From Amoebidium appalachense (lineage: Eukaryota > Protista > Ichthyosporea), in NCBI GenBank assembly GCA_963693365.1, contig CAVNZM010000006.1, positions 8,993,355 to 9,057,354 of the forward strand: DNA of 64,000 nt. Direction: 5' to 3'. The notes beneath the pieces were generated by a model. That model was not told where the DNA came from, ran no database searches, and worked only from the letters and a program-made list of their open reading frames with translations. Positions 5,162 through 38,654 of the stretch are shown one piece after another. Made by a program: the position numbers and the translations under genes. Positions within the stretch are counted from its first letter, which is position 1. Every line of letters begins with the position of its first letter.

Positions 5162-5454
5162 ATGGTTTCAAATCTCCGACTGTGAATCATGAACAATTCT
5201 TTGTCCGGAAAGGGGAGGGGAAAAAAAAAAAAAAAGTTGGGGAGGTAGGAGGGTGGGGTGGGGGGGGGGGGGGGGGGGGGGGGGGGGGAGGGGGGGGGGG
5301 GGGAGGGAGGATGAGGGTGGGGGGGGGGGGGGGGGAGGGGAGGGATGTGTGGGATTTGTGGTTGCTTTTGGTTTTGAACACGCTAAAAATTTCAGCATTA
5401 CCAGACACTAAAGCCCGTGAAAACTAATTTATACTTGTGCCACGCACTCCCTGC

Positions 5455-5542
<88 letters not shown>

Positions 5543-5823
5543 CAAGCCCACATACATATATACGTCCACATACACATACACGTTGAGGTACACTCCACAT
5601 TAATGTTCATGTACACGTACACGTACACTTACACTCACACTTACGCTTCCACTTACATTTACACGTACACGTATACACAAACAGCCGCCGCGCAACCACC
5701 CCAAGCAGAGTCTTCTGCCTGCAGCCATAGCCAGTGGCAATACGGCCCTGGTTCGTGACTTGCTCAAGGCAGGTGTTCCGCTTACAAGCACATACCAGGT
5801 GAGATTCCCCCTGCTCCCCCCCT

Positions 5824-5854
<31 letters not shown>

Positions 5855-6801
5855 CCCGACCCTGCCCTTTTTTTTACCCCTCGGCCCTTTGTTTGCTGGC
5901 CTCTTTCTACCTCTAGCCCTTTTAAGTTATTAACAGCCAACCACATTATCTATGTGCTTTGTAACCAACCAACCAACCAACCCCCCCTCCCCCCCTTTGG
6001 GTGCCGTCCCTTTCTCTCCTTCCGGGTTTAATGCTTTTTTGCATCCCCCTGTATCAAAGGACGTAGGGGTGGATCTTCGCTTGTGCTGCTGGTGAGGGTG
6101 GTGCTTGGCGTGCGCACGCGTGTGTGGGTGTGGGTGTTGGTGTGGGTGGGTATTGGGGGGCGGGGGGGCGGGAGGGGAGGGGGGAGGGAGTATGTAGAAG
6201 GGAAGAACGGCAAAGGCGGCACACCGGGGCAGACCTCCGGAAACACGATTCACATATCTTTATGGCCTGTGCGCACATGGTCATTGTTAGTGTGTCCTTA
6301 TTTGTCTGTGCCCACTTTTTCACTTTGCAGGATGGCAAGACGGCGCTTCATCTTGCTGTGGAGGCAGGCCAGATGGAGGTCGCTACCCTGCTGATCGACC
6401 TTGGGGCCCCCATCTATGCCGTATCGAAGGTGATAACCGGCTATCCCCCCCTTCCTCCCCCTCCTTCGTGCCCCCTTTTTTTTAATTTTTCGATTGAAAT
6501 CGGGGCCTCCGTTTATGCCGTCTCCAAGGTGGACATCGACTCCCCCCCCACTCCCCCCCCCCCCCCCCCCCCCCCCGCGTTATTCTTCTGCTTAATGTCT
6601 TTCATTTTTCCAGTGTTTTCCCCACTGTCAACCGACAATGAGGCATCAAGAGTGTCTTATTCCTTTTTTAACCTTTAAGCCTTCTGACCTACCCAAGTTG
6701 GTAAACTGCAAGTCTGCACACTACCCTCTTTGCCCAATTCATCCGCTCATGGTCACGAAGATGTGCCCCGTATCTCCCTGACCTCTCTCTCTCTCTCTTC
6801 T

Positions 6802-6838
<37 letters not shown>

Positions 6839-7595
6839 GTTGGGCAGCTACAGCGCGCTGCACATGGCGGTAGACCAGGGCAACAGGGACATGGCTGCCC
6901 TGCTGCTGGCCAGAGGGGCAGCAGTCAACCAGCAGGCCAGGGTAGGCACTGTGTTCACTGTGCGGCCTACTATGATTCTCTTGCATTGCATTTTCTCTTT
7001 GTGCGAGATCTCGGTTCACCGCTTTTTCGATTAGCTTGTCCCGTGTGTTCTGGTGTTCATAGTTGGTGTAATGGCGTCTCTCTCTGCCTGCACTTCTGTG
7101 TGCCTCCCCCCTCCCCCCCCCCCCCCCTCTTAGTTCCTAGCTTCCTTGCCTTCCCTCCCTGCTTCGTCTCTTCTCACGCCCCTCTCCTCTCTTTTCTCCT
7201 ACCTTCCCTCCCACCTCCAACACTTACCCACCAATCCCTTACCCCCAGCCTTGCCGCCCTACCTTGTGCTCTTGGTTTACCATCACATTATCCCCTCCCT
7301 CCCCCCTCCCCCTCTCCACCCCACCCCAACCCCCACCCCACCCCAATCAAAAAACCATTATTCACGCCAAACTCCACACACACACACACAAAAACACCCG
7401 CACACAGCCTCACACATGCACATGTGCACACAAACACACACACCACAGGCACACACACACACACACACATATACACACGCGCGTGCACACACACACACAC
7501 ACACACATGCGCGTGCACACAAACCCATTCACGCATACACAAACACATAAAAACACACACGCGCGGCCACTAGGGAGCCCCTACGTGTGCACATG

Positions 7596-7643
<48 letters not shown>

Positions 7644-7980
7644 CACACACACACACACAGCCCGTATTACCCTCGCTTTCCGGCTTCTTCCTCTTTACGC
7701 GTTCCCCCTTTTCCTATACCCTATCACCACCATTTTTTTTTTCCAACTTCACTTACACCCACTGTCCTACCATATCTTTAGGTCTTTATAAATTAGAGCA
7801 GTGTAGTTTTAGTGTTTTTACTAACTCTGTGTTTATAGGGCACCAAGACACCCCTCCACATTGCCAGTGAGAAGGGGGACAAGGAGATGGTTAGGCTGCT
7901 GCTCAAGCACGGTGCCCTGGTGCATATGCTGGACACGGTCTGTCCTCCTTACCCCCCCCCCCCCCCCCCCTCTCCCTCCC

Positions 7981-8011
<31 letters not shown>

Positions 8012-8243
8012 AACCAACCCCCCCCCCCCCCCCCCGCCCTCCCCACACACACATACACACGCACACACACTCACTCACTCACTCACTCACTCACTCACTC
8101 ACTCACTCACTCGCTCGCTCACTTGCTCACTCACTCACTCACTCACTCACTCACTCACTCACTCACTCTGTATGCATGCGTTGTGTGTGGGCGTGCCTTG
8201 TTTTGCGTCTGTACCCCCGCCTCCCCCCCCCCCCCCCCCCAGA

Positions 8244-8337
<94 letters not shown>

Positions 8338-8473
8338 ACACACACACGCACATACACACACTGTAGTGCATGCTTTGTGTGTGGGTGTGGCTTGTTTTGC
8401 ATGTCTGGATGACCTTTCGCTAGGTGACCTTTTCATTGTGGATTTGTACCTCGTGCTGCGCACCACTTTCCAG

Positions 8474-8526
<53 letters not shown>

Positions 8527-9768
8527 ACCGGTGACAAGAAAAGTAAAGAAATGGCAAAGACTGCCGAGACGGAGACTTAAACTCAGCAAACACACAAGTC
8601 ACTTCCACACCTGTGCGCTTGCTTACTGAGGGAAACGTGGCAAGGCTACAACATACGATTAGAGGAAGAGAGAAAAGGGAGGGGGACGGGGGGAAGGGAG
8701 GGGGGGGAGGGGGGGGGGGAGGGGGGAACATTCAAGAAACATCTGTTTCAAGCAAATTGGGGTGCAGGGGGGGGAGGGGGGGAGCATTTTTGAACGAACG
8801 GGGGAGAGAGACTTTGCTTCTTGTGAACTCTTGTGCTTGCATCTGCACCTGTAATACAGAGAAAGTTCACCGGGCACCCGGAGAGGAGGGGGGGAGGGGG
8901 GAGTGTGGGCAAGGCGGGGGGGGGGGGGGGGGGGGAGGACATCACCACACAGGCAATTTGTCCGTTTCTTCGGTTTTAGATGGAGAATAATTTTGCTGAC
9001 GGTGTGTGTGTGTGAGCAGCAGAAGAACAGCCCCTACTACATGATGAAGGACAGTGCGGACCTGCACGAGGTTATGGCCAATCTCAAGTTCACAGACACC
9101 GTGAGTCTTGAACCCCCCTCCCCCCTTCCCATAAAAAAAGTATTATGGACACTCTTACTTTCACTCTCTCGGACCCTCTGTCTGCCTCCACTCCCCCCCC
9201 TCCCCCCTTTCCCCCCTTCCCCTTCTCCCCCCCCCCCCCCCCCCCCCCCCCCCACCCCACCCCGGGGACTCTCCCTCCCCTCGCGACCACCCAGAGATAT
9301 GCACGAGTGCGTTCACTGACACACACACATCTTTTTTGACGTATGTGCAAGGAGAGTCAAAAGGTGTGGGAGCTTCCCTGCTCTTTTCTTGATTTGTCAC
9401 CATTGTTTGCTTTTCTCCTCGTTTTCTCCCCTCCCCCCCCCCCCCCCCCCCCTCCCCCCGCCAGTTATAAACCTCTGCCCAGTCCAGTAAAAGCAGGTCT
9501 TAACTCTCCTGCCGTTCTGTCTATACCCTGCCTCCCCTCCTCGTCCCAATAATAATAATAATAATAATAATAACAACAACAACAACATACACCTGGGGCC
9601 ACCCAACCCGGTATCTTCCATCCCTTTATTCCCCTGGTACTTCACATGCAAGGAACACACTGGAAATCGAGCCAACACGATTGATAGTTTTTCTGGCTTT
9701 GTTCCCCCCTCCTCCCCCCCCCCCCCCCCCCCCCCCCCCCCCTGCCCCTCTTCACCCCAACACACGTG

Positions 9769-9843
<75 letters not shown>

Positions 9844-12800
9844 GCCTTGAGTATGTGGAGAAAGCCGCCAGCCCTAGCCCCAGAAAAGCCGCAACCACCC
9901 CTGTCAAGGTGTGTTGCTTTGCCGTGTGTAGGGGTAGGCGTGGGTGGCGCAATCGGTCATGCATACAGGATTAAGATTATTGGCATCATAGGTTGTTGTG
10001 ACTTGCCATGTGTGCAAGTGGGGCTTCCCCCCCCCCCCCCTGGAGATGGGCTCTTCTTATGTACTGATGATGAACTCTTTTGCGTGGGTCTCAAAATCTG
10101 CATCGTGTTGAATGAGTGTGAATGTGTACTTCGAACTCCACCCTCCCCTCTCCCCCCCCCCCCCCCCCTCCCCCTACCTTTCCACCCACCTACCCTTGTG
10201 CTGATGACGAGAAAGGAAGGCGTGCTCACCATTGTGCTTGCACGCACACATCCCACTAATCCACCTTTTCATTCATGCACACTCCGCAAAGGCGCGTGCG
10301 CGCCACACACACAGACACACACCCACACATGCACATGCACACGCGCACACGCCCACGCACGCACGCACAGCACACTCACATACTCACGCACTCTCTCTCT
10401 TACACTCACACTCACACCTCCCCCCCTCCCCCCTCCCCCCCTCTAACACCCTGCTTAATGCACACATAGCCACACTCACCAACATACTTACACACTCATA
10501 CTCACACACAAAAACATACAGGTTGCACCATCCAGGCCCACATCTACCTCTGGCCCCAGCCATGGCCTGCTTACACCCCCACCCAGTGGTGGGCTGGCGC
10601 CTGGCCCCAGCGACAGCATGCCCGTAGACTACTTCCACGTGCGCCACTCCACACAGCCCACACAGTCTAGGGAGATTGTGCTGATCGACTGCGTGGACGC
10701 TAGGCTGACGGTGGGTGCTTTCCTTCCCTCCTTCCGCCTTTTGTGTTACTTTCGCTCCCTTTTTTTCCTTCCCCTAAACGGAAGAGGGGGGGGGGGGGGG
10801 GGGGGGGGGGTCAGAGTGCGTGGAGTAGTAGTAAGTGCATGAGAATGGGTTTAGGAAGGTTGGTGGTTTTAACAGGTAATGATGGGGGTTGTTGCTAGAG
10901 AGGTGTGAGGTCGTGGGTGCCTGCCGAGGGGGGGGAGGGGGTGGGGGGAGGGGGGGGGGGGAGGGGGGGGGGGGGGGGGGAGGTGGGGAGGGGAGGAAGG
11001 GGGGCGGGGGGAGAGGGGAATATTTGGGATTACTATGTGGCATCGGATGGATACACAGCAACCAAACGTATTGTTGTGTGGCCCAGCTAATACGTAGTTG
11101 TTGCCTTTACGATCACGATGGCATTATGAGCCACTGCTGCTATCCTTGAATTGCATCTGACCGATCCCAATCATTTATTCGTTTTTTAGTTTCGTGTAAG
11201 TGTGTGTGTGTTCTTTCTTTCGTGCATGTTTTTTGTGTGTTTGTGTGTGCCTCTATACCTACGTGTGTTTGGCCGTGCTTGCGTGTGTGTTACTGATTGC
11301 GTGTGTCCCATCACATTCTAGAAACATCCGCTAACCCCAGCACGTGCACACACAGGAAGCCATCGAGCACATCAGCCGTTGGCACGTGATTGCACTGGAT
11401 GCAGAGGGGTTCACCCAGCAGGGCCCGGCCCTGCTTCAGATTGCAGTGGAGGGGGACGGGCGCCACCACCCGTACAGGCAGGTGGGGGTGATGTACGTGT
11501 ACCTGTTCGATCTGCTGTGCCCGGCACACACGGTCATCATGTCGTCACTGGCATTCATCCTGGCCCGACCCGAAATCATCAAGGTGGTGCACGACCTGCA
11601 CCAGGACTCGTGGCAGCTGTACAAGACATATGGTGTGTACCTGCGCAGCGTGTTTGACACACAGCTAGCAAACGAGTTTCTTACGGGGGAGATGTTTGGT
11701 GGGCTTGGTGTTGTAGTTGAGAGGTATGGGGATGGCAAGCACACGAGCAAGCACCGCACCAAGAAGGCTATGGCCGAGGACCCCCTGTTGTGGCACCGTC
11801 GGCCACTAGACCGTGAGAGGCAGTGCTATGCTGCTGACGATGTGGCGCTGCTCCTGCGGGCATTCCCCGTCGTCTGGGACTACCTGGGTCCCGTATATGC
11901 CACTGCCATACTGCAGGTACCAGCAACCCTTCCCCTCACCCCCCCCCTCCCCTCCCCCCCCCCCCCCTCCCCCCCTCCCCCTACACGCACACACACACAC
12001 ACACACACAAACACGCACGCACACACACACGCACACACACACACACACACACGCACAGCTCCTTTCCCCATTGCTACTATTCAAGCACTAAGAAAGGCTG
12101 TGTGATTGGTGGTGAGAAGCCAGAAGGGGCCCCATTTCTTCCCGCAGGGGGGGGGGGGGGGGGGGGGGTAATGCACGGAAGACTGTCTCAACTTCATGCT
12201 GATGTTCTTAGTGATGGAAGCAGCCCTTAAGGTTGGGATTCCTTGTGACCGACCCAAACTGCAATTTATGACACTAACACGTGCACGTGCAGGCATCGCA
12301 GATCCGCTGTGACCGTGCAGCCGGCAGCACCGACCAGACCGTCAACCGTCGGCCCATTGCCTACCGTGGGCCCACCCGTGCCCTGTGCAGTCTGGAGCTA
12401 TCGGTTTCTATGGGCTTCTACTGCCTCTACCCCCGACCCCTGCACAGTGAACGTGTGCCCGATGACATCCTCGCCTACCTACCCCACGCCTTTTCCGATC
12501 GCCTACGCCAACATGCACATATCGGGTACTTGCACGAGGTTACACTCGACTTGGGCCGGCCCCCCGTCGCGGTGTTTTCGCTCGTTGGTGGTGGGACGGA
12601 GACGGCGCTACTTGGGACGGATATGGTTAAAGTGTTCACGCAGCAGCACCTAGACCTGATACTGTCCTGGCTCACCCCCCATCTGGGCCCGGATAACCGG
12701 GCCGCTCTCGACGGGTCGCTGCATAGCATCAGCTGCATGCGCAACAAAAAAGGAAAGATTTACGGCTTGACCATCCGTGTGGGTCGGCCCGTGTTCGGCG

Positions 12801-13709
12801 CTGCGGAAATGCTTACGGACATTTTGTTTGACGGCGAGAAATCAGTGCTGATTGTCGGTGCTGCGGGCACGGGTAAGACAACGGTTGCACGTGACGCGGC
12901 ACGTGTGATTTCCCAGCGGTTTCCCAACGTTTGCGTCGTCGACACGTGGAGCAAAATCTGCGGTGCAGGCAATATCCCTCATTGGTCGGTGGGGTGGGCT
13001 CGGCCCATGATGGTTGATGACGTGGAGCGTCAGCCTGAAATTCTACGCGAGTGCTACCGAAATCACATGCCAGGGGCTGTGGTAGTCGATCAGGTGTATC
13101 GGTATGAGGATGCAGAGGCACTGAATGAACTGGGCAAGTACCGTGTGCCCTTGGTGGCTGGGGCCCAGGGGACGTTCCGAGAGTTGGTGTCCAACATGCA
13201 TCTGAATGGCCTGCTGGGGGTGGTGGCGGCATCCCCACACATCACACTGGAGCCTAGTGTCAACGACCCAAAGAGGGTATGCATCTAACCCATTCCTGTG
13301 TCTCCCCCCATCCGCCCCCTCTCTTGCTGCTCCCTAATTCCACCCACCCCCCCACCCCCCCCACCCCCCCACACATACACACCCATATAAGCTCAAGAAC
13401 AGGCACGCGCACATGCACATGCACATGCGCACATGCTCGGTCACATACACTCACAGTCACACACCACACTCATGCACCCACGCACGCACACGTACTCGTA
13501 TCACACACACACTCGACACACACACACACACACATTGAAACCCTTTTGCTGGCACACCCTCTCCATCTCGTCCACCTCGATATGCTTGTGTATTCCTTTC
13601 TCTCCCTACCTTTGCACACTAAATGGGTCTTCCCCTTGTGCACGTGCTTTCTTTGTCGTTCTGTGTACGAAGTCTGGTTGTGTTGCCGGTTTGAACCCCA
13701 GGCTCCGCC

Positions 13710-13761
<52 letters not shown>

Positions 13762-14439
13762 ACGCACTACCACAATCACCACCTCCACCATCACCTTCAC
13801 CACCTCATCCGACCCTCCAGAAACCTCCCGTCCCTCCCGACTCGCACCCAAGCGCACACCTCCAACTCCCCCCCCCCCCCCCCCCCTCTCCCCTGGGCCC
13901 CCCCTGAGGATGGGCTCTGCTTATTATGCATACTCTTTATGTATGGCTTGCATCATCTGTTATCCGTTTGTTCTTGTGTACTTCGTACTTTTTGACGCAT
14001 TCAAACCCCCCCCCCCCCCGCTCTCCCCCTCTCGTCCTCCTCCCTCCCCTCCGCTCCCGTCTCCCTCCCTCCCACCCACCCACCCATCCTTCCCCACCTC
14101 CACCCACCCCGCTTCCACCTCCCTCCCTTTCTATATATCTGTTTCCATCGTTCTATTCAGCTTTCTCTGTTAACCCACCCACCCATCCCACAGTGCCTAC
14201 GTCGTACGGCCTACCCCGTCTTCAACACAATAGTGGAGCTCAATCCCAGGTCCTTCGACCAGTGGCGGGTGATTACCGACGTTGCACGTGCGGTGGATGA
14301 TATATTGGCTGGCAGGCCTTATCGGGCCCAGATCAGGGAGAGGTGCCCCGAATCGGGTCAGGTTACGGTTCGGCTCGTGAGTGTGGAGGAGGATGAGGAT
14401 GCACCCCCTGTGCGTGTGGTGCTTCCAACTGTGAAGTAG
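5162..14439 (+). CDS. Ankyrin-repeat / DEDDy 3'-5' exonuclease / Ycf45-SpoIIIAA-like P-loop NTPase fusion protein, paralogue 1 (about 850 aa)
   Basis: Exons, all phase 0: tentative ATG 5162-5164; 5685-5798; 6331-6429 ([10 protein letters not shown]..); 6837-6941; 7839-7937; 9020-9100; 9843-9908; 10522-10710; 11356-11916 (IALDAEG, HDLHQD, YAADDV); 12293-13276 ([29 protein letters not shown]); 14194-14439 ending in TAG. Confidence 0.88.
11356..11916 (+). CDS. DEDDy 3'-5' exonuclease domain exon of paralogue 1 (EXD1/Egalitarian/RNase D-like)
   Basis: ExoI VIALDAEG, Exo[18 protein letters not shown], LWxxRPL and ExoIII YAADDV, all in one 561-nt exon bounded by cag|...|gt. Confidence 0.9.
12293..13276 (+). 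CDS. Ycf45/SpoIIIAA-like NTPase domain exon of paralogue 1
   Basis: Collinear with recalled Ycf45 motifs: [33 protein letters not shown], Walker [18 protein letters not shown], Walker B VVVDQ. Branch point cactaac at 12272. Confidence 0.88.
13898..14010 (+). repeat. Dispersed ~110-bp intronic repeat, copy A
   Basis: cctgaggatgggctctgcttattatgcatactctttatgtatgg...gacgcattcaaacc; near-identical reverse-complement copy at 57891-58006. Confidence 0.85.
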
Positions 14440-16281: not shown

Positions 16282-16818
16282 GGGGGGGGGGGAGAGGGGG
16301 GGGGGGGGGGAGGGGACAGGGGTGAGAAGGCCGGGATGTGAGGCTTAATGCCATAGCACACGTGCACATAGCGCATTACGTGGGTATATGAGAATTGAAG
16401 TTGTTTTGCCAGGACCTGGTGATACGCAAACAATTTATTGGTAGGTAAGAACACACCCGAAACAACGCACACAAATCAAACTATGTAAATTCTTTTGCCG
16501 CACCTTCAAAACTTATTACTTGCTTTTGATTGGTGTTAGTAGTTTTTATTTATGGGCACGATGGGGGCCGTTAACAGGAAAACCGGAGAAAGGGCTGGAT
16601 ACGGAACTAACTAGCTAACTGGTGCTCATGCAATACTGTGATGTCAACAGAGTGTCCATTAAAAATTTGCATTTTCTAAAACAAAGTTGCCTATGATATT
16701 TCCCAGTTTAACTTAACGGAATTACTTGATTTAGTCACACTTCAAGCCACACACAGACCCAAACCACTGAGACCCCTCGGCACACCCATTCATACCCGCG
16801 CACCATTCGGGGTAGTTA

Positions 16819-18878
16819 TCACACCTTCCACATTTGTCGATGCACACACTTGCACTGTGGTTTGGGCTTATGGGGTGCGCAATCACAGTAAATGCCCTTA
16901 TATGGTGAATTAGGGTTGCATCCGTCGACTAGATTGCACCAGTTGTTTCCCTCACAACGGCGGTATGGATCTATGCATTTGCACTCGCACACCGCAGGAT
17001 AGGTTGGGGTAGGGTTTGGGGTACCAGTAGGTGTGGGCGTGGGTGTTGGTGTGGGTCTGCGTGTAGGTGTGGGGGTGGGTGTGAGGGAGCGCGTTGTTGT
17101 GGTTGTAGCCTTGGGTGTGGGGTTGGGTGTGGGGGTGGGTTTTGATTTGCAGCCGCAAACTGAATCCTTCCACTTTGAACCCTGAGCACACCCATTGGAC
17201 CTCTCACACCAGTCCGGATAGTTGGTGCATCGACGATAGGGATCGATACACACATTTTTTTAATTTTTTTTATATTAATTTTATCCCGTTTCACTCCCGG
17301 CGAGGCACTGCCTCAGGGGAGCTTACCGTCTTCCGCCTAGACACAGATCGTACTGTATAGCACATTCATAAGTCAGGATTCTAATTGACCCCAACTGGCA
17401 CTATTTTTAGTTACGCCTTATCCCACGGTTCTAGCCGCAGCAACGCTAGTGGGGAAGTGAGCACAGCTCACTTTAGCAACACCAGCCGGGAGCGACCCGG
17501 GACACATACACAAACAAAAAGACTTGAAAGGGGAAGACCCCATGCCCAGGACGCTGACCCGAACCGTGGCCGGTGACTCGGATTGGTCTCCCACTTGAAC
17601 GTTGGGCTGGGATGCCCAAGCGGCGCGCCGTCGACGTCAGAGGGCCGGTGCTGTTCATGACGTCATGTCTTGCGGCCGGATGATAACAAATTGGTGGTGC
17701 CTTGACGTGGTCTGGGGTGATGGCTTCTAGGGGGCGGCCAGATTGGTGGACCGTCGAGGGGATCGATACACACTCACTCACAGGGTGTCTGGGTGGGTGT
17801 GCTGGTGGTGGTGGTAGGTTTGGGTGTAGGCTTTCTGGTGGTGGTGGTGGTGGTGGTGGTGGTGGTTGGTTACGCCGGATTTGCGTTCTCCCATATGAAG
17901 TTTGCATAAGCGAGTTTGTTTGCCAATGGGGTGTCGGCATCGAGTTTGGTGATACGCCCCCTCACAGCACCGTTAATCACAGCACGTGTGACCTGCGTGT
18001 GTTCCTGTGCGTCAGTGTGTGGAAATATTCACCGCGTGTATATTAAGTGCTTTTCAGATATTATGGGGTTATTGCCAAAGGGAAACTTACATGGGGTGTA
18101 CAAAGCTTACACATACTATTGCGGTGTAAATATAGCACTGATTTTTTGTGAGCAGGATGTGCAAGTAAGATATTTTGGAGGGGTTTCAAGTTCGAGTGCA
18201 CGTGTTTGTGTCTTTGTGCACGTGTTGTATCGGTTTTCTCGCATGTGTATCGCAATATGGTGATCACACGTTGTGTGCACCTATTTTTTCAAGTACGTTT
18301 ATCATTATTGTTAGAACCAAGAGCTAAATATATGCACGTAACAACCACTAGCTGCACCTCGTCGTTATGTTACTCGTAAAACCTTTCGCATGCGCCACTG
18401 ATACACCAATCTTCTTCATGGGGCATGCACGTGCACAGTCTCACCTCCATAGCGCTGGCCTGTGGGTGCTGTGCACGGTAGAGGGCAGCCAGTCCGGCCA
18501 CATGGGGGCAGGCCATGGATGTGCCGTACATGGTGGCTGTGCCCCCCCCAGGCGCTAGAGACCTGCAAAATCCCGTATTTTCGTCAGTCTGGATTCGGAT
18601 AATTTGATTTTCCAGTGCTTATAGATTTGTGTGGCGGAGAATGGGTCTGTGGGTAGAACAGATGGGAGGGGAAATTGGGGGGGGGGGGGGAGGTGGGGAG
18701 GAAGGGGTGGGGGGGCGCGGGGGGAGGGGGGGGGGGGGGGGGGTTGGTCGTCGGCAGGAGTTGATTTACAGGATAGGCCCCCGGAAGGACTTAGGTGAGG
18801 CGGCCGTGAGGGGGCCCAAGAGGGAGTGGCACATGGGAGTGTTGCGCAGTTGAGAGCGCAGGAAGTAAAGAAAAGCAT

Positions 18879-18920
<42 letters not shown>

Positions 18921-18983
18921 CTTTTTCCTTTTCTTTTCTTTTCTTTCATTCTTTCTTTCTTTCTTTCTTTCTTTTTTTTTTTT

Positions 18984-19014
<31 letters not shown>

Positions 19015-19887
19015 GGATGAAGAACAAAGGGGAGGGCTAACGTGCTGGAGGATAACGAGTTTTCATATCGAAGAGGGGGAGGGGTGGGTGGGTGGGTGGG
19101 GGGGAGTGCCGGGAGGGGCCCAGGGTTGGGGTAGGGTGGGGTTGAGGGGAGGGAGGGGCGGAGCACCGGGCGGGGGGGGGGAGAGGGGCGGGAGCGGGCA
19201 TGGGAGGTTTGGCAGGGATTGGGGGGAGGGGGGGGGGGTGGGGCGGGGGGAAGGGAGGGGGGATCCACCAAACCAGTTATCCATAATGTTTCGATTCTTG
19301 CAACATGCGCCTGAAATAATGCATACTATAAAATTGAGAGTTTCAGTTTAAAAAGGCGCCATCTTGGCAGTTTATATTATCAAAGGAAAGAGACTTGCAG
19401 TGCGAGGGGTGCAAGTGGTACTTACTCAGCGTGTGAGCCTGGAGCCAGTATATCCACACACCTGTGGGATATCATATAAGGAAATGTCTTTGGAACCGGA
19501 ATAAAGAGCATCGGTTCGAACGAGTTTTATTACTAATAGCCAGGAGGGACAGTAAGGGTGGTACAAGTGATATGCAACGAATAGCTTGCATGAATCTCAG
19601 AGCGACCGTGCACAACCAGGCAATTTGTTACAGAAAAGACCACCTTTATAACACAAATAAAATGCTCACTCACACAGGTTGGGCACAACTAAAAACATAA
19701 GCAAATTCATCTGTGCAGGCACACGTTTGGACACCTTAACAACTGCATACAAAACGCACTGCCCACAGCAATACACACAAAGACACTCACCCCATACACA
19801 TTGCAACACTTCTTTTCCCTGCGTGTCTAGTACTCAAACACACACCCGCGCACGAACACGCACACGCACGCACGCGCGTGCGTGCGT

Positions 19888-19985
<98 letters not shown>

Positions 19986-26760: not shown

Positions 26761-26791
<31 letters not shown>

Positions 26792-27898
26792 AAAAAAATT
26801 TAAAAATTAAAAATAAAATAGTAATAATTACTAATAATATACACACACTGCTGCAGCAGGCCACTAACATGTGCACACAACATGACTGTTGGAAACATGA
26901 CAGCAACATTTTGTGATGTTATCATTAGCATACAGGAGGCTGGAGTAACAGAGTGACGTCTTCTCACAAGCACCCACACAGACATGCATGCACGCCCACA
27001 CACGCCGACACACACATGCACACACACACACACACCCGCACGGGCTTACACGTACTTTTTCAATCACCATACATTTCCCACCATTTGTCAATTGTCGAGC
27101 TCAACCAACTATTCGTCGTTTTTGCTTGTATTTTCACGAGTTTTTCATGTGCCCTGCTTCTGGTCGGAGCTAGGGTGCTAATAGATTTTTTCGTTCTGAA
27201 GATGTTTTTTGTCCCGCAACCTTCACTTTATCTCTTTACTTGACTTTACTCTGCCACGTGCGACTGTGGCCTTAGCCGCCGTATGAACAAGTCAACTCTG
27301 CTTACCTGTTTACTTGCCTTTACTCTGCCACGTGCGATTGTGGCCTCAGCCGCCGTATGAACAAGTCAACTCGCCACCTCTTTACTTGCCTTTACTCTGC
27401 CACGTGCGACTGTGGCCTCTGGCGAGTTGACTTGTTCATACGGCGGCTGAGGCCACAGTCGCACGTGGCAGAGTAAAGGCAAGTAAAGAGGTAAAGTGAA
27501 GGTAGCGGACAAAAAACATCTATTTTTCAAGGGTATGAGTTGGCGCGTGATCATTTGCTTCAGAAGGAAAGTTTTGTCAGCCTTGAAAAATAAGAGCTAC
27601 CTCCAAAGGTAGCAGGACTTAACTTCTTCACCTTCTTCACCTTCACTTTGTTCCTTTACCTTTACCCTTCCAGTTTCGTTACCCTCCACCCCCCCCCCCC
27701 CCCCCCCCCCCTCCGTTTTTTTTGTCATGTCTTTTTTTGCAGGCGGATGGCAAACAGTCGTCACTCCACTATGCAGTTGCAGGCAGGCACGTGGGTGCGG
27801 CCCGTGTATTGCTTGAGAACGGAGCCAACATCATTGACAAGCGGCAGGTAGGCGTTACGTCATGTTGAGAAACCCAAAAATATACCCCCCCCCCCCCC

Positions 27899-27939
<41 letters not shown>

Positions 27940-28555
27940 GAGAAAAAGAACTGTATTTTCCAGAACACTGCCGTTAAGATATACGGAATCCCAAAGAGTT
28001 GAGATTAGGAGCAGAGCCATCTGCAGGCTGCTGTCCTTGTTGCTTCGTTGTTTTTGGTTTTCTTTTTTTGTGCCGTCAAAGTGGGAGTCTGAAGGATAAT
28101 GAGGGGAAAGATGTTGTTTTCATTGGAGTAGTGGAGGAGGAGGAGGAGAGGGGGGGGGGGGGGGGGGAGGGGGGGGAGGTGGGGGGGGAGGGGAAGGTGA
28201 AGGGTGGCGTTGAAGGGGGAGGGGGGGAGAGAGAGGGGAGAAGGGGGACGTGGGTAGGAGGTCCCAAGGAATGAATGGCAGGTATGAAGCATGCCTCCGC
28301 ATAAAGTGTTCACTGGAAATACCCCCGCCCCCCTCCCCTTGGTTCCCCCCTCCTCCCCCCCCCTCCCCCTGCCCATTAATCATCATCGGTCCCTCTGCCT
28401 CCCTCCCCTCCTGCGTCTCCACCTCTCACCCCCTCCCCCTCTATGATGCAGGATGGGCAAACAGTGCTGCACATAGCTGCAGCCAGTGGCTGTGCCGAGA
28501 TGGTGACTCTGCTGATGGCCTTTGGTGCCAATCCAGCAACTAAAGAAGTGGTCCA

Positions 28556-28594
<39 letters not shown>

Positions 28595-30562
28595 TCCACC
28601 ACCCCAACCTTCCCCCTTTCCACCCCAACCCTCCCCTCCTCCCCCCGCACCCTACCCCCGCCCTCCCTCTCCTCCCCCTTTCCCCCTCCCCCCCCCCCAC
28701 CTCCTTTGCCCCGTGTCAAGTGTTTGTGTTGAATTCTTCTACCCAGATGACGGGCTATAGATTGATACAGTAGACACTATGTTTACAAACTGATCGCCGC
28801 CCAGCCTTTCATCTCACGGCCCAAACCTGCAGGGGGGCTATACGGCTCAGCAGCTGGCGGTTAGGTCAGGGCATATGGACTTGGTGGCACTTTTGGATAA
28901 GGTCCGTGCTGCCCCGGGAGAGGGGGGGGGGGGGGAGGGGAGGGGGGGGGGGGGGCAGACACTGACTGAGGGAGAAGCGAAAAAAGGGGGGGATGGGGGG
29001 GGGGGGGGGGGGGGGGGAGGGGTGGGGGTGGGGGGAGGGGGGGGGGGGGGGGGGGGGGGGACGGAGTGAACGGGGAGGGGGTGGGATGGAGGGAGGGGGG
29101 GGAGGGAGGATGGTAAGAGAGAAAAAAGGAACAGGGGGGGAGATGGCAAGAGTGAGAGGGAGCGGGGGAGAAAGAGAGAGATTGGGAGAGGATGAAGTGG
29201 AGGAACGAGAAGTGTTGGAGGGAGGGCAGAGGTGGGGGGATGTAGGGCAAAGAGAGTTAGGGCAAAGAGAGTTAGAGGAGAAAGAAGGAGGGGAAGAGGG
29301 GACGTGAGGAGGAGAGGGGGTGAAAAAGGGGAGCTAGAGAGGGAGGGAGGGAGGAAGAGAAACTGAGAGCAATGATGGTAGGGGGAGACATGAAACAATA
29401 GAGGGAGGGAGATGGGGGGATAGGGGAGGGGGTGGGAGCTAGAGAGGGAGGGAGGGAGGGAGAGAAACTGAGAGCAATCATGGTAGGGGTAGACATGAAA
29501 CAATAGAGGGAGGGAGATGGGGGGATAGGGGAGGGGGTGGGTGGGTGGGTGGTGGGGGTGTGAGCTTTGGGGGGTTTTGAGGGGGGGAGTGAGAGAGAGG
29601 GGGGGGGAGAGAGAGCAAGAGAGAAGAGAAACAGAGCTCTTATGTTTGTCCAAGAGAAATCTCTTCGTGGTGCATTTAAATCAAAATCTTTGCGTAAGCA
29701 GAGAGAGCATCCACGGCAGTGGGAGGTGCCTGAGGCCATAGCCAGTGGGGATGTGCGCCTGCTGCAAGAGTTGCTGGATGGAGGGGTCTCGCATGTGGCT
29801 GTGTACCAGGTGCTTGCCAATCAGAAACCCCCCCCCCCCCCCCCCCCCCCAACCCCAACCCAAAAAAAAAAAAAAAAAAAAAAAGGAGAAGAAGAAAGTC
29901 AAAAAAGAAGAAAGGAAAAAAGGCCAAAACAGAAGAGCGCAGAATAAAAGACAACCACCCACAAAAAGGGTCAAGAAGATTTCGTGCACAAAAAAAAGCA
30001 AAAAAAAAAACAATGAGAAGGAAGAAGAAAGGGAGGTGGTGAGGTAGAGAGCAGACGAGCAAGTACAAAGGGAATGGAAGCAAAATCGAATAAACACGGC
30101 TGCACGGATCACAGGTGGCTTCTAGTTTGGAACTGAAGTCAAATACAGCGATAAATGGATAACGATGGGGATAGTGGTGGGTATCATTGCATTCTATATG
30201 TTGAATGAATTGAGCAATCAATTCAGCTCCCACAAATTTCATCCAAAGGTTTGTGTCGATTTTAGAATTTCCAACTTCCGCCCCATGTAAGATTCGGATT
30301 TCTGACTATCCGGAGTTATCTGGGGTGCTTACCGGATGGGTTCAGGATGGCAAAACGGCACTGCATCTTGCTGTGGATGCCGGCCAGGCAGAAATAGCCG
30401 AAATGCTGCTGCTGAAAAAACTCAACCCCAACATAGCGTGCAAGGTGTGTGTGTGTGTGTGTGCGTGTGCGTGTGCGTGTGCGTGTGCGTGTGCGTGTGC
30501 GTGTGCGTGTGCGCGTGCGCGTGCGCGTGTGCGTGTGCGTGTGCGTGCGCGCGTGCGTGCGC

Positions 30563-30636
<74 letters not shown>

Positions 30637-30969
30637 ACGTGCATGTATGTGTGCTCGTGTGTGTGTGTGTGTGTGTACACACGTGCGTGTCCGTTGGTGT
30701 GTACGATCACGATTTGGTATGGGTTCAATTGATCGATCCCTCACGTCCCCACCCTCCCGTCCCCACCCTCCCCCTTCCAATTAACCCCCCCAACACATGC
30801 ACACACACACGCATGCACGCACGCACTCACGAACACACGCTCACAGTCACAGACATTCCCCTGCCCTTGCATCTCCACCTACCCCTCCCCCCCCCTATTT
30901 TGTATCTGCCGAATTGGCCTGCGGTTGCTTGACCTCTTACTGTCGTTGCTCACATAGTCAACAATCAGC

Positions 30970-31003
<34 letters not shown>

Positions 31004-31055
31004 TTCTTTCCCGGCATCACATTTCATCTTATCTCTATTTCTTTATTTCTGTATT

Positions 31056-31086
<31 letters not shown>

Positions 31087-31171
31087 CCCTCTGCATCTCC
31101 TCTAATCTCTAATTCTTTATCCTCCCCCCCCCCCCCCCCCCCCCCGCATCACATCTTCTCTGATCTCTATT

Positions 31172-31203
<32 letters not shown>

Positions 31204-33221
31204 TTCTTTCCCGGCATCACATCTCATCTAATCCCTATTTCTTTATTTCTGTATTCCCCCCCCCCCCCCCCCTTCCTCCCCCCCCCCCCCCCCTGCATCT
31301 CCTCTAATCTCCAGGTCTTTATCCTCCCCCTCCCCCCCGGCATCACACCTCCCCTCAGATCTTTATTCCCCCCCCCCCTTCCCCCCATTCCCCCCTGCAT
31401 CACATCTCCTCTGATCTCTATTTCTTTGCCTCCCCCCCCCCCCCTCCCCCTTCATCCCCTCTCCTCTAATCTCCATTTCTTTGTTACTTCCCCCCCGGTC
31501 CCTCCCCCCCCCCCCCCCCCCCCCCCCCCGCGCCCCGCGCGGCATCCCATCTCCTCTGATCTCTATTATTTTGCCCCTTCTCCACCCCCCCCCCCCCCCC
31601 CCCCCCCCCCTTTTCCGGACATTACATCTCCATTAATCTCCATTTCTTTGCCCCCCCCCCCCCCCCCCCCTCCCTCCCCCCCCTCCCCCCTCCTCCCCCC
31701 CTTCCGGGCATCACATCTCCGTTAATCTCCATTTCTCTGCCCCCCTCCCCCCCCCCCCCCCCCCCACCTCCCCATGCATCACACTTTCTTTGTCCCCCTC
31801 CCCACCTTTCCCCAGATCAACAGCTACAGTGCACTGCATCTAGCAGCACAGAGGGGCAACCTACCAATGGTGCAGTTGCTGTTGCAGCACAGTGCAGCAG
31901 TAAACCAGGTCGCAAAGGTAGATTAACTCCCCTTCCTAGCCCTCCCCCCCCCCCCCCCCCCCCCCCCCCGCCCTCCCCCCGCCTCCCCCCGCCTCCCCCC
32001 CTCCCCCCTTCTCCCCCTCCACAGACACACACACAGCCCCATGGTCCCATTCCCCCCCCCCCCGTTCCTCCCTTGCTGATGGCATGGTGGAATGCGAGTC
32101 AGTCCAAGGAAGATTTGTGGGTGGATGCCACAGGGATATCATCCGCATGCTTATCCAAATCTTGTCCTTCCCATTCCTGTCCAGTTCCTACCCCCCTTCT
32201 CCCCCCCCCCCCCCCCCCCCCCCCCCTTCTCCCTTTCTCCCTTCCCCTCCCCCCCGCTCCCTCCCTGATTCCCCAATACTTAAGCCAATAGGATGGTATC
32301 TGACCCACCACTCTCCTATGCTCCTGCAGGGCAACATGACAGCCCTGCACATTGCAGCGTTCAAGGGGCATTGGTCCATAGCCTACCAGCTGCTGCGTGC
32401 TGGCGCCATCATTAACCCTAACGAGCCTACGGTCTGTTACCCCCCCCCCCCCCCCCCCCCCCACCCACCCCACCGCACCCTCCCCGTCTGCCCCCTTTCA
32501 TCCTTCCCCTCCCCTTCTAATGCTCTTGCTACTCCTCATGCCCCCCTCCCCCTCCCCTCCCCCCCCCCCCCCCCCCCCGGGCTGCTGCTGTTGCCACCAA
32601 AACCATATGCGTTTTCTTATTTGTTATGTTTTCTTCGTAGTAGCGTGATGGCAAACATCAAGAAATAGACAGCTACATGTGAGGGTAATGGGCAGATTGG
32701 CAATCACGTGTGCACCATCATAGAGTCATTGTGTTGTCCTACTGCCCTGCAGTAGCCCCCCCCCCTCCCCCCCCCCCCTCCCCCCCCTCCCCCCCCCCCC
32801 TCCCCCCCCCCCCCCCCCCCCCCAAACACACAAACGGCCTTTACTCCTCCCCCTCCTCCCCGTTCCTTCTCTGCGCATGTTCCACACCTAGCTAGCCCTT
32901 GTGTCTTTCATTCCCTTTGTCACTGTTCCTTTTCTTCTTCATGGCAGCAGGATCTGCATGCATCGTGTGTGTTTTTCATTCACGGTTTTACTTATAATCC
33001 CACACACATGGATTAGAGGGCACGGGTTGATGTGTGGACTCACACTGTAGATCACGTGGCGGGCAACTCCACAGAAGGGGGAGCAGTGCTACCGTGCTAT
33101 TGTCGACAGCGGCCAGCCATGGGTGGAGTGGCTCGTCACTACAGACAAGGTGTGCAACCCCCCCCCCCCCCCCCCCCCCCTCTCTCCTGCCCTCCCCCCC
33201 CCCCCCCCCCCAAAAAAAAAA

Positions 33222-35179: not shown

Positions 35180-35211
<32 letters not shown>

Positions 35212-36654
35212 CCCCGCCTCCCCCTTTCCCCTCGCCCCTCCCCCTCCCCCCCCCTCCCCCCCCCGGTGTTTTATAGCAGATGCCGTTCATGTCTATGTGC
35301 ACACAAGTATGTGACTGTGTGTCCTCCCTGTATGAAAGCATGTGCCCACATGTGTGCATGCTCATGGAGTGACTGCGTGTTTGGGTTTGTATCCACAAAT
35401 GTGTGTGCGGTCCATGTGCCACATGCACGTACACGTACGCACGTGCTAATATGGCATGTGCACACACAGGAAGCTATCGTACACGTACGCACGTGCTAAT
35501 ATGGCATGTGCACACACAGGAAGCTATCGTACACGTACGCACGTGCTAATATGGCATGTGCACACACAGGAAGCTATCGTACACGTACGCACGTGCTAAT
35601 ATGCCATGTGCACACACAGGAAGCTATCGAACACATGTTCAGGTGCCTTCTTCTTACTCTCGATGCTGAGGGGTTTTCACCCACCGGTCCCTCCCTTTTG
35701 CAAGTGGCGGCGGTAGGGGTGGATCTTCTGTTACCCGAACGCACGAAAGACACCATCTACGTATATCTGTTCGATCTACGATGCAACGACAGTAAGGCGA
35801 TAATGCAAGCGCTCGCACCCGTTTTGGGAGGAAAAACACCCATGAAAGCAATACACGATCTGCACCAAGACGCATGGCAGCTGGCAATGGCACACCATGT
35901 TCCACTTTCTGGGGTGTTCGACACGCAGCTGGCGCATGAGTTGGCTACAGGGGAGGTGTTTGGTGGGTTGGGCAAGTTGGTGAGTCGCTACACAGACCTG
36001 AGCCATGCCAGCAAGCGGGACACCCAGAATGCAATGGATGCCGACCCGGACCTGTGGGCGCACCGGCCCATTGACCCGGCCCTGATCGAGTATGCATCTG
36101 ATGACGTGGCGCTGCTGCTGGCTGTGTTTGCGCAACTGTGGACTAAGCTGGACCAGGCCCAGCTGGCATCCGTGCTCAATGTGTGTCATTGCCCCTCCCT
36201 CCGTCCATTTTGGTTTGATGCAGTGTTTGTTTGTCTTTCCCTCTACCACAGCGGGTGAGTGGGTACCGGTTTCAGATGTCTACACACTTCTCATCTTGCT
36301 CTTCCCGTTTTTTTTGGGTCTTGCTATTATCTGTTGTGTTGCCATTTGGGTGTTAAGCGAGGCACGGAGTTGCGGGAAAACGGAGCGGGGTGTTTCCCTC
36401 CGGGAGGAGGAGGTTAGGGGTGGGGGGGTTGGGGGGGGAGGGGGGGAGGGGGGGGGGGGGGGAAGAGGGGAAGGGGGGCCCTGTACTCCCAATTAAGACG
36501 TTACCGAATTAGCCCATCACTGTTCAATTGGGCAGGACTGATGGTAGGGGTAGTGTATGGTCTTAGGGATGGAGGTGGGTGGGTGGGTAGGTGGGCGGGT
36601 GGTGGTGGTGGGAGGGGGAGAGTGGGGGAGGGGGGGGGGAGGGGGGTAGGGCGG

Positions 36655-36687
<33 letters not shown>

Positions 36688-38335
36688 GAGAATGTTTGGA
36701 GAGGGCTAGTGGTATGGTGCGAAAAGGAAAAAAAGGTGGGGGGGGATTGGGCATGTGTGGCTCTGGTTTTTTGCTGACACATGGGGTTGTTTACAGGCAT
36801 CCCAGGAGAGATGTGACCGGGCCATGGCATGCACCAGTGAGCTGACAGCCAGCCAGAGGCCTATGGTGTGCCGGGGCGACCAATGGCGGCTCAGCAGCAC
36901 CGAATTGACCAATCACGTCGCAAACATGAAAATTGGCGGGCCGGTCAAACGCCGCGTGGAAATGGATACGAAATCGATTGGCGAGTTTCTTCCCCAACCG
37001 TTTCGTGATCTGATTGCGAAAAATCGACGGGCTGAAAGTATCCAGGAGATAGGCATTGAATTAGGCCGTCCCCCCGTTATTACGTATCGGTGTTCCGATG
37101 GCGAGACTGAGATGGTGGTGATGGAAGGGCCAGGAGACATGACTTTTACGCAAAAACACATGGACGGTGCAATAAAAGCACTGGGTAGCCGGTTAGGCAG
37201 CAACAACAGGGTAACTCTTGATGGGTCCCTCCACCGAGTCAGCGCTGTTAGAATGGGTGATGTTGTGTGTGGGCTGACAATATTCCCTGGTCGGTCGATT
37301 ATGGGTGCAGCAGACGCGGGTGCAAACCTGTTTTTCGATTCGCGGAAATCGGTTCTTGTGGTCGGTCCGAGAGGGTCAGGAAAAACGACATTTTTGAGAG
37401 AGGCAGCTCGCCTGCTGTCGCAATTGGTTAAGAAGGGTGCAAAGAGTGTTTTTGTGGTGGACACTTTGGGTGCTGTGTGTGGTTATGGCACGGTTTTACC
37501 ACCGGCGGTCGGTTTAGCGCGGCGAATGCCGGTCGAAGACCCTCTCAAGCAAAACGCGGTCATTTCGGAGTGTGTTCAGAACCACCACCCGCACACGATC
37601 GTAATCGATGAGATTTCGCCGAATTCGGACGTGGATGCTGTGCGTGCGGCCATTTCCATGCGGGTGCAGGTGTTGGCTGGGGTGCAGGGGACATTTAGGG
37701 ATTTATGTTTGAGTCCTGAGCTGTGTGAGTTGGTGAAGGCAAGACCCGTCCCACAGCAAACCGGCCCACAAACCTCTACACAGCAAGTACGAATATTCCG
37801 TCTCCCCACCCCTCCCCCCCCCCCCCCCCCCTCCCCCCCTGTCCCGCCCTCCCCTCCAAAACCCTCTCCCTTCCCCTTTTCCCGAATGCCCCCCCCCCCC
37901 CCCCCCCCCCCTTGTGGCCCCTCCCCCCTTTCACATCCCCTCCCTCCCCCCCCCGGCCCCTCCCCTCTTTCACTAGCCTAACCGAGCCACAACATTCGGC
38001 CTAGCCCCCATCACGTCCCCCCCTCCCCCTTTCCTCCCCTCCTCCCTCATCTGCAAATCTCTGTTAGTCACGTTCCCAGCCATTGTTGACTGCACTGTTG
38101 TCAGCTGTGGTGCAAGTACCTAGACATGTCGGTTTGTTACCTGTCTCAAAGCTTTTTGCACAAACAGAAACCTGGGCTTGCACACTCTCCCAGGTCATTC
38201 CACACAGATAACTCACTCCATCGTGGTTCGGACGTACCACCTATTCTTGTGGATGCCTTCTGCACTCTTCCTCCGACCTCCTGTCCCCTTATCCATATAT
38301 GTATGTTTGCACACTCACTCTCATGCCTGCCCCCC

Positions 38336-38401
<66 letters not shown>

Positions 38402-38654
38402 ACCCCCAAACACACACAACCAGCCGCTGCCGCCGCCACCACGCCCTCAGAGCCTTTTTGGTGCCGTGGTTGAGCTACTCCCAGGCAGCCCTAATAGGTG
38501 CCGTGTGATTGTGGACCCCCTGAGGGCCAGTGAAGACCTGATGGCTGGCAGGCCCTACAGGGCACAGGTCAGGGAGATAGATGCAGATACGGGCAGGATG
38601 ATTGTCTACTGGGTGCCTGTGGATCAGTATGGTGTGGAGTTGCCCATGCGGTAG
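25507..38654 (+). CDS. Ankyrin-repeat / DEDDy 3'-5' exonuclease / Ycf45-SpoIIIAA-like P-loop NTPase fusion protein, paralogue 2 (about 1090 aa, duplicated ankyrin block)
   Basis: Exons, all phase 0: tentative ATG 25507-25509 and 25632-25649; 25882-25986; 26642-26740; 27743-27847; 28452-28550; 28833-28901; 29702-29809; 30346-30444; 31816-31917; 32330-32431; 33051-33149; 33889-34191; 34858-35025; 35620-36180 (LTLDAEG, HDLHQD, YASDDV); 36797-37786 ([15 protein letters not shown]); 38424-38654 ending in TAG. Confidence 0.88.
27200..27521. mobile_element. Fold-back/MITE-like element with long terminal inverted repeats and internal ~72-75-bp tandem units
   Basis: Starts agatgttttttgtcc..cttcacttta and ends taaagtgaagg..ggacaaaaaacatct. 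The unit tttacttgcctttactctgccacgtgcgactgtggcctcagccgccgtatgaacaagtcaactc occurs about 2.6 times forward and once inverted. Confidence 0.65.
29329..29541 (+). repeat. Two-copy ~105-bp purine-rich tandem duplication
   Basis: gggagctagagagggagggaggg..agagaaactgagagcaat.atggtagggg.agacatgaaacaatagagggagggagatgggggg occurs twice. Confidence 0.8.
30970..31800 (+). repeat. Degenerate minisatellite: (gc)atcacatctcctctgatctctatttc units separated by variable poly-C runs
   Basis: Roughly a dozen recognisable units in the intron upstream of exon 31816. Confidence 0.8.
34460..34733. mobile_element. Near-perfect palindromic (fold-back) MITE-like element bounded by TTAA
   Basis: Arms of about 130 bp (ttaaaccaaccaccgcatctccc...cattctggg / cccagaatg...gggagatgcggtggttggtttaa) around a 9-nt loop aaaagtgtg, in an intron of paralogue 2. 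Confidence 0.75.
35431..35630 (+). repeat. Four-copy 50-bp tandem repeat spanning the branch point, acceptor and first bases of the exonuclease exon
   Basis: acacgtacgcacgtgctaatatggcatgtgcacacacaggaagctatcgt x3 plus a fourth copy with two differences. Confidence 0.95.
35620..36180 (+). CDS. DEDDy 3'-5' exonuclease domain exon of paralogue 2
   Basis: [30 protein letters not shown] and YASDDV. 561 nt, the same length as the paralogue 1 exon. Confidence 0.9.
36797..37786 (+). CDS. Ycf45/SpoIIIAA-like NTPase domain exon of paralogue 2
   Basis: [24 protein letters not shown], Walker [18 protein letters not shown], Walker B IVIDEI. Confidence 0.88.

Follow-up and report, generated by a model that had tools for sequence, protein, structure and literature searches.

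Two ankyrin-exonuclease-NTPase genes of Amoebidium appalachense belong to a branch of the exonuclease-Ycf45 family with a predicted intact nuclease and an eroded ATPase site

The nearest described systems to the proteins considered here lie partly among DEDDy nucleases and partly among PilT-type ATPases. Drosophila Egalitarian (Egl; PDB 9uju, 9rvy-9rwb) carries a DEDDy domain and, in the available text of its descriptions, has three LOTUS-like domains before the exonuclease, no ATPase among the domains described, and five catalytic residues that are all intact yet dispensable for the binding of RNA and for function in vivo (PMC13186709; 10.1101/2025.08.03.668247). EXD1, Mut-7, RNase D and RRP6 belong to the same nuclease superfamily. 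In CpaF, the Asp-box E312, the Walker B E357 and the His-box H382 lie at +25, +70 and +95 from K287 (PMC11300603), and the available text on PilT-like ATPases describes these residues, together with two arginine fingers, as conserved and ATPase activity as disrupted by mutation of the motifs (PMC5424180). Archaeal PINA, which also fuses a nuclease-fold domain to a PilT-type ATPase (5f4h), is described in the accessible part of its source as a hexameric PIN-domain ATPase driving Holliday junction migration (PMC6061704). Here we analyse a stretch of 64,000 nucleotides of Amoebidium appalachense (GCA_963693365.1, CAVNZM010000006.1, 8,993,355-9,057,354; the window), in which two paralogous genes, gene 1 and gene 2, encode ankyrin repeats before a DEDDy exonuclease, as the LOTUS-like domains stand in Egl, and a Ycf45/SpoIIIAA-type nucleoside triphosphatase (NTPase) after it. 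The parts are known and the two-domain core is common; what is new is the ankyrin-bearing branch with an eroded ATPase.

We consider it about an even chance (probability roughly 0.5) that these are ankyrin-docked RNA 3' exonucleases with a likely pseudo-ATPase scaffold, forming a branch of a widespread exonuclease-Ycf45 family, as suggested by the sequences and by a structural model. The ankyrins would dock the proteins on a partner protein, replacing the LOTUS-type front ends as targeting module; the intact nuclease would trim RNA 3' ends; and the ATPase domain would serve as a nucleotide-binding scaffold, and neither as a motor nor as a switch, its hydrolysis presumably being lost. In the ancestral family, a ring driven by ATP would be coupled to an RNA nuclease or to a domain that binds RNA. 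RNA is the putative substrate because the nearest relatives are RNA-acting and because LOTUS domains occur on family members; the LOTUS, GLEBS, SAP and NPM1-C front ends found in the family likewise point to RNA and nuclear contexts. LOTUS domains have been linked to small-RNA granules in a source whose available text makes no mention of an exonuclease-Ycf45 fusion (PMC2848206).

Both genes lie on the + strand, gene 1 at 4842..14439 and gene 2 from a first clear coding exon at 25882 to the stop at 38654 (Table 1), and both follow the family plan of PF01612, then PF19568, then a conserved C-terminal segment. Over 671 columns their nuclease-NTPase cores share 38.7% identity (E 3e-136), and the ankyrins of gene 1 match the last four of gene 2 at 49.6% identity. 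Together with the open GT-AG models and the Pfam matches, this core identity bears out the original prediction of two same-strand paralogues with this domain order. Pfam Ank was above cut-off in 9/9 of the ankyrin exons scanned (out of 13, four in gene 1 and nine in gene 2), in keeping with the N-terminal array that had been proposed, and DNA_pol_A_exo1 (PF01612) was above cut-off in both nuclease exons, where the D-A-E, HDLHQD and YxxDD motifs are intact as originally read. Spore_III_AA (PF19568) matched both NTPase exons, above cut-off in gene 2 (34 vs 27 bits) and below it in gene 1 (23.9), while the TIGR02858 SpoIIIAA equivalog, at 47-51 bits against a cut-off of 281, stayed far below in all proteins. 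Through these two profiles the window genes share the NTPase domain of bacterial and plastid Ycf45/SpoIIIAA; bacterial-type Ycf45 has an R3H domain, whereas the window genes have none and their catalytic motifs are eroded. R3H was not found by the Pfam scan in the NTPase or last exons of either gene, which agrees with the Ycf45-like P-loop domain lacking R3H that had been noticed earlier.

A third protein with ankyrins, exonuclease and NTPase in one gene model, P0144 (EP00124_P001088), comes from Ichthyophonus hoferi and gives independent support for the fusion. It was the one match among 245 relatives to a profile built from the 13 ankyrin repeats of the window, and its Spore_III_AA match is above cut-off. 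Its nuclease is 56% and 52% identical to the window nucleases, identities across the three proteins being 52-59%. Unlike the window proteins, it has about three ankyrin repeats; besides, its model lacks roughly the last 70 residues of the family and may be truncated. The five DEDDy residues D, E, D, Y and D are present in 3/3 of these ankyrin proteins. The window nucleases are of the Egalitarian/EXD1/RNase D kind and are candidate DEDDy 3'-5' exonucleases. EXD1 is catalytically inactive according to the text available on it, while the catalytic residues of the window nucleases are intact. A tree of 56 DEDD-intact nuclease domains placed gene 1, gene 2 and P0144 in one clade, with a value of 99 in the Shimodaira-Hasegawa-like approximate likelihood ratio test (SH-aLRT), and their nuclease branch lengths are 0.34-0.54 vs a median of 0.34. 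The NTPase tree also grouped the trio, at SH-aLRT 90, although it was a quick tree with long branches and hence weaker than the nuclease tree.

The NTPase domains of the same three proteins have changed much more. An AlphaFold2 model was made of P0144 with 95 further alignment rows, rather than of the window proteins; its mean predicted local distance difference test score is 80.5, high in the nuclease and NTPase and low in the ankyrins, where there was almost no alignment. Foldseek matched the NTPase to PINA (5f4h, top match), VirB11, CpaF, FlaI and PilT/U (E 3e-10 to 8e-8) and the nuclease to RNase D, Egalitarian and RRP6, and the model has the PilT-like layout of an N-terminal alpha/beta subdomain and a RecA-like core. 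The likeness of the window proteins to PilT, VirB11, CpaF and PINA extends to predicted fold and motif order, but identity is 12-15% and the Asp-box, His-box and arginine residues are missing in the window branch; a sequence search with the NTPase exon of gene 2 gave no meaningful solved relative. Counted from the Walker A lysine, the family has residues at +25, +71 and +96, which we assigned as Asp-box, Walker B and His-box residues on the agreement of this spacing with CpaF; from their position, the two conserved arginines are putative arginine fingers. In gene 1, the first arginine is changed to S and the Asp-box E to K, while Q replaces both the catalytic E of Walker B and the His-box H; in gene 2, the second arginine is changed to F, the Asp-box E to A and the His-box H to Q. 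P0144 shares the His-box change with both, has the same arginine changed as gene 2, and differs from both in retaining the Asp-box E and from gene 1 in retaining the Walker B E. Of eight catalytic-type residues, therefore, four are changed in gene 1, three in gene 2 and two in P0144, while 231/244 relatives change none and 3/244 change two or more. This loss in both window genes was absent from the original prediction.

The same erosion is seen across the domain as a whole. Among 44 NTPase columns that are at least 95% invariant, a set defined on the 244 other rows and thus favouring them, 11 are changed in gene 1, 14 in gene 2 and 13 in P0144, as compared with none in 167/244 relatives (P0187, which has an aberrant end, changes 11). 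In the NTPase tree, the trio has branch lengths of 1.3, 3.2 and 4.0, or 2 to 7 times the median of 0.58, and nuclease identity exceeds NTPase identity in 3/3 trio pairs and in 0/1378 family pairs. Walker A (GxxGxGKT) is intact in all three proteins, so nucleotide binding probably remains. This retained motif, together with PINA as top fold match, would also be compatible with a motor nuclease still active on DNA or RNA in the manner of PINA, with a rewired active site. We regard this as very unlikely, since 3/3 have lost the His-box histidine and each lacks a conserved arginine, with the catalytic glutamate gone as well in gene 1, and since such a motor fits the canonical family better than the ankyrin branch.

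The preferred reading, an RNA exonuclease with a pseudo-ATPase scaffold, draws on the contrast with the canonical family. The family set consisted of 250 proteins and the two window models, which gave 247 usable NTPase domains, namely 244 non-ankyrin rows and the trio. Relatives have the same core in the same order, at 32-37% identity over about 550 residues, but in them the ATPase motifs are retained and DEDD is often lost. DEDD is kept in only 53/123 of the other nuclease domains with all columns filled, the first motif being possibly misaligned in some, and in 67/123 of the other members whose nuclease domain is full, DEDD residues are gone but the six key ATPase residues are kept, which is the mirror image of the ankyrin branch. 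As read from these alignments, the ankyrin branch reverses the constraint of the family, with nuclease residues kept and ATPase residues lost.

Several points weigh against the preferred reading. The low share of relatives with DEDD indicates that the family often uses its nuclease domain without catalysis, and the precedent of Egalitarian means that intact DEDDy residues are no proof of activity. Walker A and the DE of Walker B are retained in gene 2 and P0144, and the Asp-box E in P0144 too, so that slow hydrolysis is possible, and the Asp- and His-box assignment was made by spacing and strand order and not by residue-level superposition. Because NTPase queries were used to gather the family, high NTPase identity is favoured, and its 1378 pairs are non-independent. 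Just three members of the ankyrin clade are known. Finally, the fusion in gene 2 is a predicted exon model, and the join of ankyrin to nuclease exons in gene 1 was deduced from the length of a contig.

The likeness to Egalitarian also raises another explanation, in which the nuclease fold binds structured RNA uncut, the ankyrins link this RNA to a motor, a membrane or a granule, and the dead ATPase serves as scaffold. The best solved-structure sequence match of the gene 2 nuclease exon is Egalitarian (E 2e-6), as is that of the family nuclease profile (E 7e-25), where the match reaches beyond the catalytic core. Egl has an exonuclease-adjacent helical domain and a dynein light chain site behind its nuclease; in the P0144 model the nuclease is followed by a long helix, which aligns weakly with Egl, and then by the NTPase. 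EXD1, Mut-7, RNase D and RRP6 match less well than Egl, and the nearest solved relatives (Egalitarian, RNase D, RRP6 and EXD1) are those that the original prediction of an EXD1/Egalitarian-type nuclease had implied. The three LOTUS-like domains of Egl have a counterpart in relatives that combine LOTUS, exonuclease and NTPase (P0002, P0006 and P0082), and the dispensable catalytic residues of Egl would suit an adaptor. However, Pfam scans found no LOTUS-like domain in gene 1, gene 2 or P0144, and the trio keeps its five catalytic residues across 52-59% identity, which more than half of the other members do not. We hold an Egalitarian-like adaptor to be rather unlikely, yet the strongest of the competing explanations.

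Repeat-bearing proteins with an NTPase and an effector are also found in immunity, where receptors of the STAND/NLR type have the order effector, NTPase, repeat sensor. The original prediction of a repeat sensor, NTPase switch and nuclease effector followed such logic, with ankyrins detecting a viral or transposon product, the NTPase switching and the nuclease destroying RNA. In its favour are the two diverged copies with ankyrin counts of 4 and 9, whose arrangement as one repeat per phase-0 exon would ease shuffling, the ties of LOTUS and EXD1-type domains to small-RNA and anti-transposon granules (PMC2848206, in its available text), and the consideration that a nucleotide-binding domain could still switch without hydrolysis. 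Several results do not fit. The window order is repeats, nuclease, NTPase, with the NTPase C-terminal, and differs from that of NLR-type receptors; the domain resembles PilT, VirB11 and PINA, and the fold matches listed for the P0144 model include no STAND protein; and NB-ARC, NACHT and nSTAND profiles fell below cut-off, NB-ARC and NACHT covering only the P-loop. Hydrolysis residues are lost, the ankyrins are interchangeable with other front ends, and both the ankyrin block (49.6%) and the nuclease (about 50%) are conserved between the paralogues. The neighbouring genes encode a subtilase and PDS5, and the viral contigs with Ycf45 ATPases carry them only as stand-alone proteins. The immune reading is quite improbable to us; it is without positive support, and a new defence system is not shown, although some role against viruses or transposons is conceivable.

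The age of the duplication bears on the same question. Gene 1 is about equally near to gene 2 and to the Ichthyophonus protein, so the duplication looks old rather than the product of a fast expansion, and in the nuclease tree gene 1 is closer to P0144 than gene 2 is, with weak support (SH-aLRT 80). The duplication may thus predate the split from Ichthyophonus, which speaks further against immunity. A third copy of the core was not found within the window. Further members with ankyrins were sought with an ankyrin-clade profile against 7997 candidates, which returned P0144 only in a word-limited search, so that others may exist; an Atlas search with the whole of P0144 gave only short ankyrin clusters (0.76), and 61 pattern matches of the gene 1 nuclease exon to metagenome contigs included 0 confirmed relatives.

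The exonuclease-Ycf45 core itself is widespread and not peculiar to this genome, nuclease and NTPase both being present in 165/244 of the non-ankyrin relatives, while the ankyrin form was seen in 1/245 relatives (P0144). The first relative found, P0001, was already a nuclease-NTPase fusion; its NTPase matched 1403 proteins among 7995 candidates, of which the best 120 of 1403 were taken, and the gene 1 NTPase exon matched 2402 representatives, of which the best 150 of 2402 were taken. The gene 2 NTPase exon gave 1 match among 7997 candidates when searched against longer proteins in a word-limited search. Hosts among the matches listed are diatoms, oomycetes, a red alga, Rhodelphis, a raphidophyte, a labyrinthulid, a green alga, a chytrid and choanoflagellates, with proteins of Nitzschia, Seminavis, Saprolegnia, Salpingoeca and Rhodelphis as named examples of the core, and a eukaryotic Atlas cluster with this core scored 0.96. 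Front ends in 33 selected long or labelled relatives were LOTUS (5), GLEBS (2), SAP (1) and NPM1-C (1); the widespread core takes several front ends interchangeably, ankyrins among them. No description of the exonuclease-Ycf45 fusion was found in the literature searched, where supplements were outside the search and some domain-architecture table may mention it; titles on ycf45 were mostly those of plastid genomes, and the three-part architecture was likewise without a family name there, as had been supposed. A search of small-RNA literature on Ichthyosporea gave nothing relevant among the matches listed. One relative of 1753 amino acids (P0123) has two Ycf45-type ATPase domains, and in a bacterial-type Ycf45 with R3H (P0236) the ATPase domain contains a LAGLIDADG intein.

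Ycf45-type ATPases that stand alone and have intact motifs were also present on 13 viral contigs (L001-L013:3001-3720). A viral origin of the fusion is not supported, as the 13 loci had no nuclease or ankyrin frame in the fetched flanks. Several of these contigs are over 80 kb, and L008 comes from a giant-virus bin.

The core family spans many eukaryotic groups and contains the closest solved-structure match to the Egalitarian nuclease, and the ankyrin branch can be seen as a natural experiment in which the front end was swapped and the kept catalytic site reversed. Contrasting it with a canonical member would separate the role of the nuclease from that of the ATPase and would give Ycf45-type ATPases a first function in eukaryotes. 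The comparison would also bear on whether Egalitarian arose from a motor-nuclease whose ATPase was lost among close relatives of animals. A much bolder view, and to us quite an improbable one, is that the family is an undescribed RNA machine found throughout eukaryotes, from which Egalitarian descends and in which RNA would be fed by a PilT-type ring to a DEDDy nuclease, and that its ichthyosporean form is an ankyrin-gated receptor whose pseudo-ATPase would assemble on a ligand and whose nuclease would act against viral or transposon RNA.

Transcript evidence supports the first part of gene 1. Sequencing run X1 contains every sampled word of the gene 1 NTPase exon, and a contig of 3294 nucleotides (depth 90), when compared with 4900-7300, holds exons only, a 532-base intron being removed at GT-AG. 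The contig continues into the exon at 7839, and its 5' part is the sequence ending at 4844 before the splice, which places the start codon at 4842-4844; position 5162, where the gene had been taken to start, is intronic. The spliced contig shows that runs X1 and X2 contain transcripts, though neither was recorded as RNA; X1, X2 and the other runs are one sample. Counted along the contig, the gene 1 model reaches its stop at contig position 3103, and the contig would end at 14630, inside an AT repeat, so that its length fits the whole model plus 191 nucleotides of 3' end. This fits a single transcript from ankyrins to NTPase, with the first four introns confirmed in the contig and the joins past 7839 deduced from its length and not read base by base. 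A low-depth contig (6.6 vs 90) over part of the first intron (5052-5204) may be a retained intron, another start or DNA.

Exon limits of both models were set at GT-AG sites, and both are open. All 24/24 modelled introns (4845-38423) are in phase 0, also outside the ankyrin repeats; four have RNA support and the remainder were chosen so that the frame stays open. The first five ankyrin exons of gene 2 could be a separate gene, or gene 2 could be decaying, the nine-repeat fusion then being an artefact of modelling. Similarity links exon 28833-28901 to the last ankyrin repeat in P0144 and exon 29699-29809 to the first coding exon of gene 1, and the gene 2 model is a prediction from splice sites and frame. 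On the other hand, 14/14 of the gene 2 introns are GT-AG and in phase 0, no stop occurs in 1079 codons, and a shorter gene 2 would still have four ankyrins, nuclease and NTPase; we consider such an artefact unlikely. Gene 2 exon 34858-35025 aligns with gene 1 exon 10522-10710.

Table 1. Features of the window, with positions counted from its first nucleotide.
Feature	Position	Strand	Basis
Gene 1, 849 amino acids	4842..14439	+	Open GT-AG model; first four introns backed by spliced contig
Gene 1 start codon ATG	4842-4844	+	Last three bases of upstream exon, spliced to 5685
Gene 1 ankyrin exons, 4 repeats	5685-5798, 6331-6429, 6837-6941, 7839-7937	+	GT-AG model
Gene 1 linker exons	9017-9100, 9843-9908, 10522-10710	+	GT-AG model
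Gene 1 DEDDy 3'-5' exonuclease exon, 187 codons	11356..11916	+	PF01612 E 5.7e-15; D-A-E, HDLHQD, YAADD intact
Gene 1 Ycf45/SpoIIIAA-type NTPase exon, 328 codons	12293..13276	+	Spore_III_AA match; Walker A intact
Gene 1 last exon and stop, conserved C-terminal part of family NTPase	14194..14439	+	Matches gene 2 last exon (E 3e-10) and C-terminus of relatives
Gene 2 ankyrin region, 9 exons in two blocks	25882..32431	+	Predicted from GT-AG sites, frame and Pfam Ank
Gene 2 first ankyrin block	25882-25986, 26642-26740, 27743-27847, 28452-28547, 28833-28901	+	Best match is the Ichthyophonus array, 35.9%
Gene 2 second ankyrin block	29699-29809, 30346-30444, 31816-31917, 32330-32431	+	Matches gene 1 array, 49.6%
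Gene 2 linker exons	33051-33149, 33889-34191 (Pro/Thr-rich), 34858-35025	+	Predicted by frame and GT-AG sites
Gene 2 DEDDy exonuclease exon	35620..36180	+	PF01612 E 6.6e-16; D-A-E, HDLHQD, YASDD intact
Gene 2 NTPase exon	36797..37786	+	Spore_III_AA above cut-off; both Walker motifs (A, B) intact
Gene 2 last exon and stop	38424..38654	+	GT-AG model; second in-frame acceptor 38451 possible
Subtilase (S8) gene, unrelated	16760..23900, ends approximate	-	PF00082 on 3/4 exon frames scanned
PDS5 cohesin regulator gene, downstream of gene 2	about 40900-62000	-	PF20168 on three exon frames

The window DNA is rich in introns, which are filled with microsatellites. The two paralogues had been described as a tandem pair, which is correct as to their common strand but not strictly so as to their arrangement, as the 11 kb separating them contain the subtilase gene, which is multi-exon, has catalytic His and Ser motifs, and encodes Pro/Thr-rich linkers and Cys-rich C-terminal repeats. 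A probable gene divergent from gene 1 (258-4155, - strand) has Pro-rich frames and a possible membrane helix, with no Pfam family above cut-off. In gene 2, a 50-base tandem repeat (35440-35639) duplicates the acceptor of the nuclease exon, and the last of the four acceptor copies alone gives an open frame. One intron of this gene contains a unit of about 73 bases in three tandem copies and then one inverted copy (27206-27516), and another a near-perfect 274-base hairpin (34460-34733) with arms 94-100% complementary, possibly a miniature inverted-repeat element.

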